Positions 18,079 to 49,013 of a stretch of DNA of 64,000 bases are shown here, piece by piece. This DNA comes from Felis catus (Eukaryota), in assembly GCF_018350175.1 (NCBI RefSeq), contig NC_058368.1:10168001-10232000 (forward strand). The letters run 5' to 3'. The position numbers and the translations under genes are program-made. Numbering within the stretch: the stretch's first letter is position 1; the number at the start of each line of letters is the position of its first letter. The notes beneath the pieces were generated by a model. That model searched no databases and had not been told where the DNA came from. It saw only the letters and a list, made by a program, of their open reading frames with translations.

Positions 18079-19282
18079 AAGACAGCACTTTTAAGACCAG
18101 AGTTATTTTTCCTCTTTGGTCCCTCCCTGGCATCTCCTCCCCACCCCACCACCAACTTCACGTTAGCATCAGTTACCTTCTCCGGTGATGGGATTAATGT
18201 ACCTTAAGGTACCTGAGTCGGGGGGCGGGGGAGCAGAGAGAGGAGGTACCTACCCTGGTACTCCAGTTATAGACCTTGGCAGTGAGAGGCAAGCAGCCAC
18301 TCTGGGCAGAGCTCATCAGCACTGGTTGCTCCCAGCCAGAAAGCAGCAAGATTTTCTTTTGCTGCCATCTCTCTGATCATTAGTAATTGCCCTAGGGGAC
18401 CTAGTGGACACAGTTCTTATCAGTAAAGCAGCACCTGGCAGGTTTTGCTGTCTGAGACCATGAACCAGAGAGGAAGAAGAGCAGACTCTGCTCTGGGAAG
18501 GTGAGAAACATCTCACGTTAACAGGTAAGAAAAGTTATCTTCATTCCTTGCCTTTTTTTTTTTGTCTCATAGAATTTTCTAGAATTCTGCTTGGGTACAG
18601 ACAGCTGTTTGCTGTAACAGTGAGTATTATGAGGTGACTGTTTACGTTGTCAAGGAAGCAGGTTTTGCTCCTCAGGAGGAAGGTAAAGAGAAATTTGTCA
18701 CATTCACTGTGGAGCTTGACCATACCCCACATGGACCGGCACGAACATCAGTGCATTACGGTGGATTGTGCTCAGTGTCCTTAACTGGCTGTTGCTATGG
18801 AATTTTGTCTCCGTAATCAGAGCCTCTGCCTTGATAATTTGATTGCACTTAAAAAAAAACAACAAAAAAAAAACCCTTGAATTCGTGTAAATCCTGATAA
18901 CATCACGAGAGGGCTTTTGATTAATGCAAAATTAAAGCTCTTTCAGAAGCATTAATTGAATAAAAAGAACACTATTCAAAGAGCTTTAAGGACATCCCAA
19001 ACCATTTGAAGATAACAGACTCTACAGCCGTTATCTTAAAATCTGGTTAATTAAAGTGCTAAGTGTCATCAAATATTTTGACTTCGGGGTACTTTATTTA
19101 TATTTGTTTCTATCTAATTTTTTTGTTGTCCTGGCCATTAAGTATCTGTTCTTCTTTTCTCACACTGCCCAGGCACGTTAGCAGGAAAAGAAACCCTAGA
19201 GTATTTCCAGCTCAGTCTTTCAACCCATCCTTCCTCCTGGCCAAGTGTTGATCAAGTATCGTAATTAAAAGTGACCCATTTC

Positions 19283-27075: not shown

Positions 27076-30000
27076 TTTAAAAAAAAAAAGGATTGTACTT
27101 CTGCAATGTTTCCATATCCTGGCCTACTCTCTTCCCTTTGCCCTCTTCCTGCAGAGGTCCAGTGCCCTCACTTCAGTTATCCAAGGTACTTCATTTAAAT
27201 GCCCATGTTCCCAAAGCATCCCTACTCCTTCTCCCCTCCACTACTCATCCAAATCCTACTCAACTCAGTTCGCCTCTGGCTCTCTTTCCCCTCCCCTCCT
27301 CATATCCGGGAAAAGCCTGGTTTGGCTGTTTGTGGTGTAAGACCCACCACTGTCAGGGAGGTTTTGTTCCAGGACAGACTCTATGTCCTTTTGGTCACAT
27401 GAAATAAAATTCCAGGGCACCAAGAGTAAGAGACTCTACTCAGAGGTTTTCCCAGGCTCTGTAAATTCAGTTTCTACATCCAGCATTCGAGTAATAACAT
27501 CCAGGATGCTCCGAAAGATGCCCTCTTAATCACTCAATAATCCTGAACCTTCAGGAGGACCCACAGTCTACCCTATAGCTTACAGCTGAGCCTCTGAGCG
27601 GCATAACCGGTCTACCTGTTTGTTCCTTTCCCGAGAGCCCAGATTATGAGCCCGATAACCTGAAATGAGATTACAAACTTCTTTTGCCTGACTTGGCAGC
27701 CAAAGAGATGCGTTTCTTCTGAGTCTCTATATTTCAAAAAAATCCCACTGAGCAAGAAATTTAGGCAAGGGACTAGCAAGTGTTACTCTCTCTGAGCACA
27801 AATACAAAAGGGCACGTACCTATGAAAAAGTCTAGGATCTATTATTGCCTCTGTTTCTTTAAGACGGAAATACTTACGTCGAAAAAGCAGCAATCTCAGG
27901 CACCTTTGGGGATTTTCCCGAGCAGCCCCCATAACACTCTTGTAAAATTAATAGTAATTAGGATTATTGCTTAAACAACTTGTCATTTATATCTAATTAC
28001 CATGCACTACAATAAAAATGATGACAGATTCACTTTGGTGTAGCCCTTATTTAATTACAATCCTTAACTTCTATGGATTTTGTCTTAATAGTTTCCTGCT
28101 TACTTGTTACATTGTCTGTCCAGAACTGAAAAATATTTGAGAAATTAGTAATTCTAGGCTTATATTGGGGTGTCTTTTTCTTCCTTTATCCTTTTTTCCT
28201 TAAAGCAGGGCGGGAAGAGCTCAGCTTGCTGTGTTTCGTCTTGGTCAGTGAAGGCGGAGATCCTGCCCCCACACACCCCCACCCCAAAGTCCTTTCCTAC
28301 TTCTGGGGCCACTTCTGAGAAGGCGGCTGCTTAGTCTGCTCCCAAGGGAGTTGCATGTGGGCTCGAGGGCAATGGCGGTGGAGTGGGACCCATGTTCCGG
28401 GCTGGGGTCTGGACAGCATCCTGGACGCCGCAGCCATCCTGGGGGAGCCGGTAACGCTGAGCCCAGACTTGCCCCACTGGACCTCAGCCTGCAGGGGAGT
28501 AGGGGCTGCTGAGAGCCAACCCCTCCCCCCCCCCCCCCCCCCCCGGCCTGGCTGCTTCGGGCCTGCTTTGCCAGGCAGAGGATGCGCAGCCACTCCATCC
28601 GGATGGAGGGTCTGGCTCAGGGGAGGACACCACCAACCCCGCAGGCCTGGCTTGGAGCCTGAGGGCAGAAAAGGTAAGGGGGCAGGGAGGGGGACCACAA
28701 CGTCCTGGGCTATGCGGTCTCTTGGGCAGAGCTCTGGGGCTTGGCTGGAATCCCCTAGGGTCCAGGGCCGATAACCCAATTTAAAGCCAGAGACCCTACT
28801 GGGTGCGCTGTGGTCTCCTCCCGCGTAAGGTCCTCCCTGTCCTTGCTGCTCCTTAACCACCTCTCCCCTAATGCACGCACCTCCCAGACCCTTCCGTCTA
28901 ACCCACGTGGCCAGCTTCGCCATGCTTCTTGCTCTCCCTCCTTTCCATGTCTTGCAACTTTTTTTTTTTTACACAGCCGGCTGCTTTCCACTATCATTCT
29001 TTGCTTTTCAAGGTCACAATTGCCTCCTCACATAAATCGGATTCATGCTAACGTGTCAAGGGTGTGAATACGTTCCAATTAATCCGTTTTATTTGATTTC
29101 AATTCAGCAAACATTTATGGGGCAATACCGTGTACGGAGCCCCAGAGAAAACTCAAACTTAAGTAAAATATAGTCTCTCGAGACTTTATACAACTAGCAC
29201 GGCTTTTCCTCACAGGACATGGTAGTAGGCTGAGATTTTTAAAATTTTAGTAACAGTGAAGTATTCAGGTAAATGTGTGCTAGAACTCTAGCAAGTACAT
29301 CAAAGCCTTGATTTCATAATTACTATTATTTAGGATGAGGCTAAAGAAGGTAGCATGTAAAACAAACAAGTCTATTTAAAGAAACATAGTAAGTAAATAA
29401 CAGAAATGACAAAAAGCCGGGCAGGGGATGACGGATTCGGATTCGTGGCTGCTTTTCGGAGGAGGAGCTCCGTAAGAGAGGAAGATTTGCAGATCAAAGA
29501 CATGCTCCTAATGAGGAGACGGGGAGGGGGCAAGAAAGGCTTCATGGAGGACGTGACATTAGAGACGGGTCTCCAAGGATGAGTAGGAGTTTTCCCAAGA
29601 CGGTGTGCAGTAGAGGCCATCCACATGGAGGAAACAGCACACGCCAAGTCAAGCGATTGAGGCACACGGGGCCCCGAGGGGCCGATACACGATGACTGCG
29701 GGACAGTGAGGTTAGAAGTGGATCATGAGGCGCGAAGAACTGGGTTTTGTTCTTTTCGCCGTTGTGACCCACGCAACCCATCTATCAAAGGGAGCTTTCC
29801 TGGGGACAGGATCTGCACACTGTGGGTGAGATCAACTAATGGAAAGTGATTTCCCGGAATATGACTGGCATCTAAAGGAAAGATGGACGGTCGTTCACAC
29901 CAGAGTTCTTCCAGAAGACGCGCAAGTGGTGTTTGGTGAAGCCTTTGTTTTCTGAGTGGGCGCTGCGTCATGATGGAAAGTGGGTGGCGGCTCTAAAAGT

Positions 30001-37695: not shown

Positions 37696-37749
37696 ATCGA
37701 ACATCTAATGACTCTAGAAGGGCTACAGAACATAAAAGCACTCTCTCAG
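37696..37749 (+). CDS. WDR95: Exon IEHLMTLEGLQNIKALSQ
   Basis: Long T tract with weak GAG acceptor; strong donor CAG|GTAAGA; 54 nt, phase 0. Confidence 0.65.
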
Positions 37750-38072: not shown

Positions 38073-38156
38073 AAGTATGGAAAGAGAGGAAGACAGCTGC
38101 TGGACATGGAAACATTCAAATGCATAATGAAGCAGAGTATGAGGTCACAGAGTAAA
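38073..38156 (+). CDS. WDR95: Exon KYGKRGRQLLDMETFKCIMKQSMRSQSK
   Basis: Acceptor ttctttttcttctaag| (NAGNAG), donor AAA|GTAAAT; 84 nt, phase 0/0; EF-hand-like LD.E.FK.I. Confidence 0.78.
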
Positions 38157-44279: not shown

Positions 44280-44345
44280 AGGATTGAACAAATAGAACAG
44301 CTTTTCATGAAAATAGACTATGAATCAGTGGGCAGAACTGAATGG
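44280..44345 (+). CDS. WDR95: Exon RIEQIEQLFMKIDYESVGRTEW (EF-hand-like loop)
   Basis: Strong acceptor ttttttttccttcctttccag|, donor TGG|GTAAGT; 66 nt, phase 0/0. Confidence 0.88.
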
Positions 44346-45573: not shown

Positions 45574-45699
45574 GATGGCTTCTGCACATATCTGCAGCTC
45601 GAGTATTCAGAGCAAGCGGATGCTTTGGCCCGACAGAAAGAGGTTTCCTTCCATCTGCCTGCTGTGCTGCTGAAGTTGAAAAGAAGAAAGAGAGTTTCT
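45574..45699 (+). CDS. WDR95: Exon DGFCTYLQLEYSEQ...LKLKRRKRVS
   Basis: Acceptor ccttttaccctccag|, donor TCT|GTATGT; 126 nt, phase 0/0; continues the W|D.FCTY motif. Confidence 0.82.
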
Positions 45700-46439
45700 G
45701 TATGTGATTTTCATTTGATAAGGATGCTGAGTGCTCCAGTTTGATTTTATTTGCTATTTTAAACTGCTCTTCAAGTGGCATGATTGCAGAAATTGTGTCC
45801 TTGAATGTAATATATTCACGTTGTCTTTTGCTAGTCTATAGAATGCAAATAAAATATGATCTCTATATGTAGTACAAGATAATGCTTCATTTTGCTTCTA
45901 AAATCAGATGGAGTAATGAATTACACATGATTCCATCATGGAATTTGTCGTATGTCTTAATGAATGACAAATGGAAAAGAATTTTCCTTCTTTTTTTTTT
46001 TTTCCCTGTTAAATGATTATTTCAGTTTAGGTAGCTAGCTATCCTAGGGTTTGTCTTCAGAGAACTTATTGAATCACAGAATCAGAAATTCAGAAGGCAA
46101 AAAGCATCTGGGAAGTAGACTTAGGATAGGAATAAAAATGCCTGACCTATTTCAGAATATATGCTCTCTTTAAAGTCTTTATTATTATTGTTATCTCATT
46201 CAACAAATAGTTGAGTCTCCGACATAGCCTAGGCTCTCTGCTGGGTGCTGGGGGTATAGAAACTCACCTTTGCCCTCTGGAAACTTATCATCTACACTAG
46301 AAGTTCCTTGCAATCTTAAACCCGTTAGGCTGTGAAATAAGCCCGCCCTAGAGAGAGGGAATAAAGGTGGCTCTTTGAATCTATGTAGTAAGTTCTTTCT
46401 ACTTGAAGGAGAACATCAAATTTTTAAAAACTATCATTT

Positions 46440-46648
46440 TTTTAAAAGTTTTATTTATTTTTGAGACAGAGAGAGACAGAGCATGAGCAGGGGAGGGGCA
46501 GAAAGAGAGGGAGACACAGAATCCAAAGCAGGCTCCAGGCACCGAGCTGTCAGCACAGAGCCCGACGCGGGGCTCGAACTCATGGACTGTGAGATCATGA
46601 CCTGAGCTGAAGTCGGACGTTTAACCAACTGAGCCACCCAGGTGCCCC
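46440..46648 (-). mobile_element. Can-SINE
   Basis: Reverse copy; degenerate TSD taaaaaact..atttt. Confidence 0.96.
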
Positions 46649-46744
46649 TAAAAAACTTTAATTTTAAGCACACCTACAGTCTTATGAAATTGTCCTATTT
46701 AAAAAGGCGTATTTTTGTTTAATTCCCACTCTTCCGCACATTAG

Positions 46745-46827
46745 GACAAGTCCATCAGCCGGAAGCCCAGGTGAGTGACAGATGTCATCAGCATGCCACA
46801 GTACAACAAACTGATCATAGCGACTGG
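46745..46827 (+). pseudogene. WDR95: Exon DKSISRKPR*VTDVISMPQYNKLIIATG with in-frame stop
   Basis: Acceptor ...cttccgcacattag|, donor TGG|GTGAGT; 83 nt, phase 0/2; TGA at 46772-46774 where the WD40 motif predicts W(VTD). Confidence 0.82.
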
Positions 46828-47835
46828 GTGAGTGTCTGCAGCTCTTCAGTTGGAAGGAAACAGTCGTGGTATGACATCCATTTCCATGTGTGTTTACACA
46901 GCCACGTACACATTTGTGGTATTTGAAAGTCCTGAAGCCCTTTTTAAAAAATGCTGGCACTCATAATATCAATCAAAGCTACTTTGCAAAGTTATGGCCT
47001 TGGTTGGCCCATTGCAATGATGTCATTGCCTCAAACACGGGCAAGAGGCCCTCTTTTGGAATACTTCCAGAGTGAAAGTATGGGCCAGATGGGGACGACA
47101 TCAGTCTTGTGACCTTTTAGCACATCTTATTTCAGATTCAACATAATATTCCTATTTTATTATCCACCAAAATTCAGTCCAAAGTGCTCTGGACAGATTC
47201 AAAAAAGTCAAATCCCCAGTAAAAAATGATGCTCGTTGCTGAAGAGCCTCAGAAAAATGGGTCTGGGGCTGGGAAGGAAGATCCCGAAGGTTTTGCTCAT
47301 GGCAATGAAAGGAAAATGAATGGGCACCACCCTGGGCTGCTTGGTTAACCTCAGTCATGGCCTGGGCGAAGGGGGTGTGGCCTGGTGGGAAGGAAATTGG
47401 GAGAACTCCAAATCAACGGGGAAGCAAAAGCAAGTTCAACAGGAGGGTTAGGGGTACAGGGTCGGGGATGGGAAATGTGATCCGGGGCGGACAGACCGTG
47501 GCCTCTGGCTCTGGGGGCAAGACTAAGGGAAGGGGTGGAGCTTGAAAGGAATTCCCACAGCCCCGCCTACTGGGACTCCCCCTGACTCCCCGCAAGCTGG
47601 GGGTTCTCTCTTCTCCACCTGATCTCCTCCAGAGGCCCCTGGTTTCCTAGGCTTCAACCATTTTAATGAACAAACAGTTAATCCAACCTCAGATCATCGA
47701 GGCTACTAAATACAATTAAATGTAATAATTAAAATATATTTGTTAATATATTAAAATGTATTCATATAATTAATATTAACTGCTAAAAAACAATAAACCT
47801 GGGTGTATACTTTCATCCGTCCCAGTTTGATTTTA

Positions 47836-48064
47836 TTTTATTTTTATTTTATTTTTTTTTTCAACGTTTACTTATTTTTGGGACAGAGAGAGACAGAGCA
47901 TGAACGGGGGAGGGGCAGAGAGAGAGGGAGACACAGAATCGGAAACAGGCTCCAGGCTCTGAGCCATCAGCCCAGAGCCCGACGCGGGGCTCAAACTCAC
48001 GGACCGTGAGATCGTGACCTGGCTGGAGTCAGACGCTTAACCGACTGCGCCACCCAGGCGCCCC
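47836..48064 (-). mobile_element. Young Can-SINE (SINEC_Fc)
   Basis: TSD gtcccagtttgatttta at 47819-47835 and 48066-48082. Confidence 0.97.
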
Positions 48065-48920
48065 TGTCCCAGTTTGATTTTAAAAGCCATGCTTGATAAT
48101 GTAATTATCATGTGTTTTGCACACGTAGCAGTTCAGAGGTTGCAGTCACCTACTAGAGATTCTGAGCTGACAATTCAGAAGATGAGGCAAGGCTTATGAC
48201 AGCAGGAAGCCACTTGAGCTGCAGGGCAGGTGAAAAGGAGGTGGAAAAAAGGACATTTCACGCTGAGGGAAAGACAAGGCTTTGGAATTTAGAGAGTGAC
48301 CCCTGTTTGTTCCATGCCAACAGGTCAAAGCAGTAAGTTGTTTTTCTAACACCCACAGTCAGCTCCAAAGTAGACAGGCTAACAGAGGAAGGAAGGGGTC
48401 AAGGGTGCAGGCTGGAAAGGTGGGAAATTAGGGGAGCACCGAGTTAACCCCTTAGTCTACAGAAAGAGGCTTGGCCCTCCACTTTGCAGATCTTTATAAT
48501 ATGCAGTAAATAACAGCCCACATTTTGAGCCCTTAGGAAATCCCAAGTCCTGGACTAATCACTTTCACACACGTCTTCCCATTTAACTCTCCGGAAAGAC
48601 AGGAACTGGTAGGATCCACATTTTTACAGGTAAGGGGCCGAGTGGTGAGCTGGGATGTAATGCCCCAACTACTGGCCTGTGCCAGGCTCCTGATGGTCAA
48701 GGACAGGCCAGGCCGGTTTCGAAGCAGGCAGAAGACATGCCCCCAAACGGTAGGATAGCAGAGGGAGGCCTCAGGTTCAGCTAGAGGGGTTGCTTGGTGT
48801 GACAGGTGTTTTACTGATCAGGGGTCTCTGTTTTGTGGAATCCATGGAATATAAAATATGTTTTACAAAAGTGAAGTGAGGAGTGTAAGTTTACTCCAGC
48901 TGTGCTTGATCTTTGAACAG

Positions 48921-49013
48921 AAACCGTGAAACCCAGCTCTATGAACTCTCCAACCTGGAGCCTTACTGTCACATCGGCGGCCTGGAAGCTGTCCCTCTGA
49001 GACTGGACTACTG
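48921..49013 (+). CDS. WDR95: Exon NRETQLYELSNLEPYCHIGGLEAVPLRLDY
   Basis: Acceptor cttgatctttgaacag|, donor CTG|GTAAGA; 93 nt, phase 2/2, in frame with the previous exon. Confidence 0.85.

Follow-up and report, generated by a model that had tools for sequence, protein, structure and literature searches.

Can a nonsense codon supply the means of its own removal? This question is raised by an 83-nt exon within a 64-kb stretch of a 2.43-Gb cat genome (C1:10168001-10232000; termed here the window, that is, the whole stretch of DNA analysed), in which an in-frame TGA lies inside a perfect match to the splice-donor consensus, CAG|GTGAGT. A preliminary description of this exon proposed that a change from TGG (Trp) to TGA both broke the codon and improved the donor, so that the transcript, instead of being null, could escape NMD and give a protein with an internal deletion. 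Whether such a protein could exist depends upon the rest of the gene. As described here, the locus is very probably a felid-type unitary pseudogene of WDR95 that has long been without function, and the TGG>TGA change one of the lesions arising from its neutral decay.

An exon that could be spliced around its own stop codon

Unless prefixed by C1, coordinates below are those of the window, whose numbering is continued into 90 kb of downstream sequence joined to it; adding 10168000 gives the position on C1. The exon in question and its splicing signals are as follows:

46745..46827, + strand: exon of 83 nt, reading DKSISRKPR*VTDVISMPQYNKLIIATG
46768..46776, + strand: internal 9-mer matching the donor consensus CAG|GTGAGT (CAGGTGAGT), a putative donor with the cut after 46770
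46772..46774, + strand: TGA in the reading frame, at a position occupied by W (TGG) in all 10 orthologs
46825..46833, + strand: natural donor TGG|GTGAGT, with the cut after 46827
48921..49013, + strand: next exon of 93 nt, reading (G/R)NRETQLYELSNLEPYCHIGGLEAVPLRLDY followed by TG; open, with donor CTG|GTAAGA

The exon is preceded by an acceptor (...cacattag| at 46744), and its first frame, which reads DKSISRKPR*VTDVISMPQYNKLIIAT(G), was fixed by tblastn with five orthologous proteins. (The third frame is open, but all orthologs align to the first, and an error in the choice of frame was rejected on this ground.) A cut after 46770 would leave an exon of 26 nt, which is shorter than the 83-nt form by 57 nt or 19 codons; joining 46770 to 48921 forms AG|A (Arg), continues in frame with NRETQLYE..., and drops both the stop and the 18 residues VTDVISMPQYNKLIIATG. 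In these respects the preliminary description was accurate: the perfect donor at the stop, the 26-nt exon and the in-frame loss of 57 nt are all borne out by the coordinates and by translation.

The ancestral state of the codon is likewise clear. Among 111 related proteins 10 contain this exon, and all 10--including that of the meerkat, a feliform--have tryptophan at the stop position (e.g., KPRWVTDVISMPQYNKL). Because tryptophan has TGG as its sole codon, the change at this site was TGG>TGA; given the same flanking bases, it can be soundly concluded that this change at 46772-46774 would have turned an internal GTGGGT into GTGAGT. It is because the TGA is placed between ...AG G and GT... that it completes CAG|GTGAGT, 57 nt before the natural donor. 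A rough log-odds matrix derived from donor frequencies (its values are approximate and are not MaxEnt scores) gives 12.6 bits for the internal site, 10.0 bits for the ancestral form of this site and 8.6 bits for the natural donor; on the + strand of the window a score of at least 10.02 is reached by 17 of 3410 GT sites. These values support the view that the ancestral internal GT would already have been a good match to the donor consensus, which the TGA makes perfect. Hence the proposed origin of the stop and the accompanying upgrade of the motif find support both in the orthologs and in the scores. Across the 10 orthologs that span this region, the 18 residues open to removal scarcely vary.

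Identity of the gene

Judged by its protein matches and its neighbor, the locus is the ortholog of WDR95 (other names of which are CFAP337-like and WDY-like) and lies just downstream of TEX26-like exons. A search of a protein collection with the next exon (together with flanking codons and with X at the stop) gave 14 matches from 14 candidates, named WDY-like (WD repeat protein on Y chromosome-like), CFAP337-like or WDR64-like; their sources are ferret, ermine, pangolin, tree shrew, camel, rodents, deer and ostrich, with no cat among them. A search with a downstream exon gave 98 matches from 100 candidates, three of which are named WD40 repeat domain 95 and two of which are fused models named after TEX26/C13orf26. 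No primate protein is among the matches listed in this second search, and eight of the 98 are flagged LOW QUALITY PROTEIN (African wild dog, sea lion, fallow deer, white-tailed deer, pilot whale, horse, porcupine and white-beaked dolphin). It did find two partial felid models, one from Lynx pardinus (666 aa, 98% identical over the query) and one from Panthera tigris altaica (327 aa, 96%). Coding models of WDR95 are present in many mammals.

The ferret protein matches the cat chromosome exon by exon at 66-96% identity over C1:10186430-10313120 (~127 kb). Directly upstream of the window, at C1:10151736-10167531 on the + strand, are TEX26 (C13orf26)-like exons that are 56-70% identical to a fused hamster model. 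(The TEX26-like match at C1:10167295-10167531 contains three stops, which may be intron flanks or damage.) Other matches of the ferret protein within the genome, on C18, C22, C10 and C11, are 25-44% identical and correspond to paralogs, though the stricter first look by which they were found may miss weak matches. The ferret and meerkat orthologs match the Pfam WD40 family PF00400 at 88 and 108 bits (the cut-off being 27) as well as propeller families; the EF-hand family PF13499 is precomputed for some relatives, but is not among the 25 families listed for these two orthologs. A search of PDB sequences with the 83-nt exon and the one after it found no relative among solved structures, the only hits being designed Kelch-like repeats at E > 6.

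What is known of the family comes from other species. The relatives listed for Chlamydomonas FAP337 (PMC6761771) are zebrafish WDR95, human WDR49 and EFCAB8, and fly WDY, and FAP337 is there said to act together with FAP57 in keeping a subset of the inner dynein arms in place. Like members of this axonemal family, the WDR95 orthologs bear several WD40 beta-propellers; vertebrate WDR95 is placed in it by sequence relationship, and the cat copy no longer works as one. In mouse, enrichment of Wdr95 is seen in reproductive organs, and males with a 25-kb deletion of it are described in PMC13253961 as normal in histology, sperm shape and litter size (10.2 +/- 1.5); the same text speaks of the human ortholog as absent. 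The human counterpart, WDR95P, is listed beside HSPH1 at 13q12.3 (PMC7890067). By the names of its matches and its TEX26-like neighbor the cat locus is the same gene as human WDR95P and mouse Wdr95, and, as in human (PMC7890067 and PMC13253961), it has been lost; the loss in the cat family is nevertheless independent, with a lesion set of its own. Among the titles listed by one full-text search for WDR95, there is none on felids.

Lesions along the gene

Lesions were located by tblastn with ferret, Fukomys and hamster proteins and by direct reading of all three frames at suspect exons; the reference orthologs are gene models, several of them partial or LOW QUALITY. In addition to the exon described above, the features along the gene are:

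18430..18524, + strand: upstream coding exon (the N-terminus in ferret and hamster); TGA at 18502-18504, where ferret and hamster have L
28376..28673, + strand: coding exon with three frame changes; TAG at 28500-28502 (E*G versus EQG) and a run of 20 C at 28525-28544
37696..37749, + strand: exon IEHLMTLEGLQNIKALSQ; open frame, donor CAG|GTAAGA
38073..38156, + strand: exon KYGKRGRQLLDMETFKCIMKQSMRSQSK; open frame
44280..44345, + strand: exon RIEQIEQLFMKIDYESVGRTEW; open frame
45574..45699, + strand: exon DGFCTYLQ...LPAVL/LKLKRRKRVS; ~35 codons lost near 45670, and a weak donor, TCT|GTATGT (2.4 bits)
69543..69588: exon with an open frame; several later exons are also open
75850..75896: exon reading SVGER* where orthologs have SVRELL; TGA at 75892, the phase being set by the flanking exons
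~100456-100703: exon with two frame changes, TGA at 100565 (QR*AE versus QRRAE) and TGA at 100631 (FCK*KN versus FCKRKN)
~118569-118675: exon with two frame changes; VVKVWDFETGRL, LSGFTGAHGNAGIT and LTFDSSGR lie in three different frames
132503: TGA, in LKT*AAKF
133941-133954: tandem duplication of 7 nt (TTCGGTG x2), making one frame change
133984: loss of the donor by GT>AT (after 133983)

Altogether the gene contains at least seven in-frame stops (TGA at 18502, 46772, 75892, 100565, 100631 and 132503, and TAG at 28500), eight frame changes, one deletion of 35 codons (105 nt) and one donor loss. Within the exon at 28376-28673 the sequence of the orthologs is found in three frames in turn, as LDSILDAAAILGEPVTL, AQTCPTGPQPAGE*GL, AWLLRACFARQRMRSHSIRMEGLAQGRTPP and AGLAWSLRAEK. 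The N-terminal exons are poorly conserved (~35-85% identity), for which reason the count of frame changes there is less certain. The run of 20 C at 28525-28544 coincides exactly with one of these frame changes; its length may be uncertain, and misassembly is possible.

Within the exon at 45574-45699, LPAVL directly abuts LKLKRRKRV, and the 35 residues QGLSYGGPVLRILSMPDDTLIMIREDGAIYFWSLQ that separate them in all seven of the orthologs inspected (ferret, Fukomys, hamster, pangolin, tree shrew, camel and deer) are gone, with the frame kept. This loss (~45667-45672) takes part of the first propeller blade, and CTG codons are seen on both of its sides.

Lesions accordingly lie both upstream of the stop in the 83-nt exon (at 18502, within 28376-28673 and near 45670) and downstream of it (TGA 75892, the exon at ~100.5 kb and others). 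Two ways around this stop were rejected. Recoding of the TGA at 46772, either as selenocysteine or by readthrough, is at odds with the tryptophan of the orthologs and with the many other lesions in the gene; and re-initiation at the ATG of ISMPQYN, which serves as the start in a Peromyscus isoform model, leads into a frame that stops again at 75892.

Age of the decay

The partial felid models provide an independent view of the downstream lesions. (Both lack the N-terminal half of the protein and hence do not span position 46774.) The Lynx pardinus model opens with MLRQEGTKRSLVCPKGEQNGIKPFFASTEESRHFHSVNERM and then NLLLTGGMDRII, being 97% identical to the shifted-frame translation of 100521-100703; at 118.6 kb its sequence, RLFLDLPGLMA, is again that of the shifted frame; it passes the AT donor unspliced, as LTPISWT; and it includes out-of-frame and intronic stretches. 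At least three lesions are common to this independent lynx assembly and, on this comparison, the decay is evidently old and is not an assembly error. Not all of the lesions are of equal age. Position 132503 is R in the tiger model and Q in that of the lynx, and the lynx is also without the 7-nt duplication; because neither occurs in lynx, the TGA at 132503 and the duplication would be younger lesions. Partial protein models of felids being present in the databases, a short C-terminal product from an internal start is conceivable, although the lynx model includes stretches that are out of frame or intronic.

The pattern of amino-acid replacement points the same way. Private changes were counted at the protein level within gap-free alignments of at least 60% identity (24 alignments covering 756 ferret positions); being protein counts against gene models, they are not estimates of dN/dS. 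At 454 sites where Fukomys and hamster agree, the cat has 65 private changes and the ferret 10 (binomial p = 5e-11); at 640 sites with ferret as outgroup, the cat has 79 and the meerkat 42 (p = 1e-3); and at 488 sites where ferret and Fukomys agree, the cat has 67 and the meerkat 27 (p = 4.5e-5). Looser counts for the same three comparisons are 91 versus 17, 99 versus 42 and 84 versus 27. By these counts constraint appears to have been relaxed on the cat lineage.

A single locus in a conserved position, several independent lesions, lesions shared with a related species and relaxed constraint are the marks of a unitary pseudogene, and all four are found here. The course of events would then have been that WDR95--a testis-enriched EF-hand/WD40 gene of the CFAP337/WDY family--lost its function long ago in the felid-type lineage, after which neutral decay would have added stops, frameshifts, a deletion and the loss of a splice site; the TGG>TGA change at 46772-46774 would be one such neutral lesion. 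Were the locus still transcribed, the two donors might be in competition, with no effect beyond the choice of non-coding isoform.

Chance and the coincidence of stop and donor

It may be asked how often the coincidence of a stop with a perfect donor would be expected. The 9-mer CAGGTGAGT occurs once in the 64-kb window versus 0.64 copies expected from shuffling (46 of 100 shuffles contain at least one), and AGGTGAG occurs 13 times versus 11.0 expected. Both counts being near expectation, the motif is no commoner than chance. Within the gene itself AGGTGAG surrounds three of the six TGA stops, namely those at 18502 (AAG|GTGAGA, 18498-18506), 46772 (CAG|GTGAGT) and 100565 (AAG|GTGAGC; C1:10268565, outside the window). 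At two of these three the stop could be removed in frame: at 46772, with the loss of 57 nt, and at 18502, which lies 24 nt before the natural donor (CAG|GTAAGA, after 18524). The recurrence of this arrangement in a single decayed gene, and its removability in frame in two cases, imply that the pattern is a chance product of decay; the stop-in-donor pattern at 46772 is not special.

TGA stops, in other words, readily land in donor-like AGGTGAG, as half of those in this one dead gene have done. A caution for annotation follows: where the gene is not otherwise open, an in-frame splice around a stop should not be taken as a sign of rescue.

Splicing without rescue, rescue and artefact

An alternative to a wholly inert lesion is that the dead locus is still transcribed (in testis, for example) and that a good part of its transcripts are cut at 46770, giving a non-coding isoform with a 26-nt micro-exon. 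The higher score of the internal site and its standing among the few high-scoring GT sites of the window speak for this, as do the intronic piRNA clusters of mouse Wdr95, which are a possible reason for continued transcription (PMC13253961). Against these stand the facts that the natural donor is also GTGAGT and is closer to the intron, and that the upstream donor, TCT|GTATGT, is so weak that the splice chain may already be broken. Moreover, of two strong competing donors the one nearer to the intron is usually favored, and exons below ~50 nt are poorly defined without special factors; both of these considerations argue against heavy use of the internal site. On balance such a splicing effect is rather unlikely. 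The fuller version of it--in which, by analogy with mouse, decayed WDR95 would be transcribed in felid testis, perhaps as the host of a piRNA cluster, with the TGA-made donor in use and a 26-nt micro-exon as the result--is less probable still. Of 24 sequencing runs listed for 13 sampled words of the exon at 48921, 20 contain part of the stretch; the four of these recorded as RNA are all gut metatranscriptomes and are silent on expression. A separate observation is that, if the introns of cat WDR95 hold piRNA clusters as those in mouse do (PMC13253961), the dead locus might stay transcribed.

Genuine rescue would require more: the TGA-made donor would remove the stop in frame, the mRNA would escape NMD and a working protein lacking 19 residues would be made. 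The mechanism is real elsewhere, and the internal donor is both perfect and in frame. Yet the gene has at least six other in-frame stops, together with the eight frame changes, the 35-codon deletion and the lost donor. From the 46770>48921 junction the frame runs through 48921-49013 and 69543-69588 and then meets the TGA at 75892 which, by coordinate arithmetic, is 61 codons past the junction; nor does any open path lead from the N-terminal exons into a transcript spliced at 46770. The residues to be removed, moreover, are those nearly invariant among orthologs, and an exon of 26 nt is hard to define in view of the size limits on exons. A collection of 5.8 billion proteins contains none of at least 80 aa--nor any of 24-79 aa--with this genome's version of the exon at 48921-49013, which is weak negative evidence; the short-length search for this exon gave three short genomic ORFs from other species, none from this genome and none spliced.

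Because a transcript spliced at 46770 is already broken upstream and stops 61 codons downstream, no protein would be rescued, and rescue is accordingly regarded as highly improbable. The suggestion that the transcript encodes a shortened protein instead of being null is therefore not supported: other exons carry stops and frameshifts on both sides. The preliminary description had itself recognized that frameshifts in downstream exons would make the rescue irrelevant, and such lesions are among those that the gene contains.

It is scarcely credible, finally, that the animal has an intact gene and that errors of sequencing or assembly account for all the lesions, the TGA included: although homopolymer errors can imitate frameshifts and one frame change does fall at the 20-C run, the seven stops come from base substitution rather than homopolymer error, the independent lynx model has the same shifted frames and the same read-through of the donor, a 7-nt duplication and a 105-nt deletion are atypical of errors, and private amino-acid changes are in excess.

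Comparison with known cases of donor creation

Creation of a donor by a nonsense change has been published as 'manufactured splice rescue', the first case being BUD13 c.688C>T p.Arg230* (Haque et al. 2023, PMC10853237). That article points out that TGA and TAA belong to the donor consensus, and it predicts donor creation for 0.61-2.57% of 115,171 human nonsense variants, with about 1 in 175 leading to a small in-frame deletion. The cat exon resembles the BUD13 case in that a GT donor, at the stop or slightly before it, is created or reinforced by a nonsense change and in that the consequence would be a small in-frame deletion, here of 57 nt. It differs in that the change is at donor position +4 rather than +2; in that the shortened exon has just 26 nt; in that the cat donor is a predicted one; and, above all, in that the remainder of the gene is dead and there is no function to rescue. 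Put differently, two features of such a rescue, a donor strengthened by the nonsense change and an in-frame deletion, are found in the cat, but the frame is not otherwise open.

Exonic changes can also activate donors within working genes. LMNA c.1824C>T (progerin) is a silent and dominant exonic change that activates a cryptic donor and causes an in-frame deletion. As in LMNA, a single exonic base change in the cat improves an internal GT, and splicing there would cost the exon its 3' portion while keeping the frame; unlike that change, which is silent, the one in the cat is a stop and lies within a pseudogene.

Implications and further observations

With WDR95 interpreted as a unitary pseudogene, the cat family becomes one more lineage without this testis gene, which is dead in human and dispensable in mouse, and its loss carries little biological weight. 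WDR95 may be eroding in several mammalian lineages. Should the donor at 46770 prove to be used, this locus would offer a natural, selection-free test of a perfect exon-internal donor versus a good natural donor, for which the site at 18502 would provide a second instance.

Two of the ortholog models are irregular around the exon at 46745-46827: that of Camelus ferus jumps from LKLKRRK to NRELQLYE, skipping this exon, and that of Odocoileus (deer) reads through the intron that follows it. The window itself is mammalian DNA with dense carnivore-type tRNA-derived SINEs in both orientations, translations of which recur in the list of open reading frames; two of the copies, at 46437-46604 and 47854-48021, are 88% alike.
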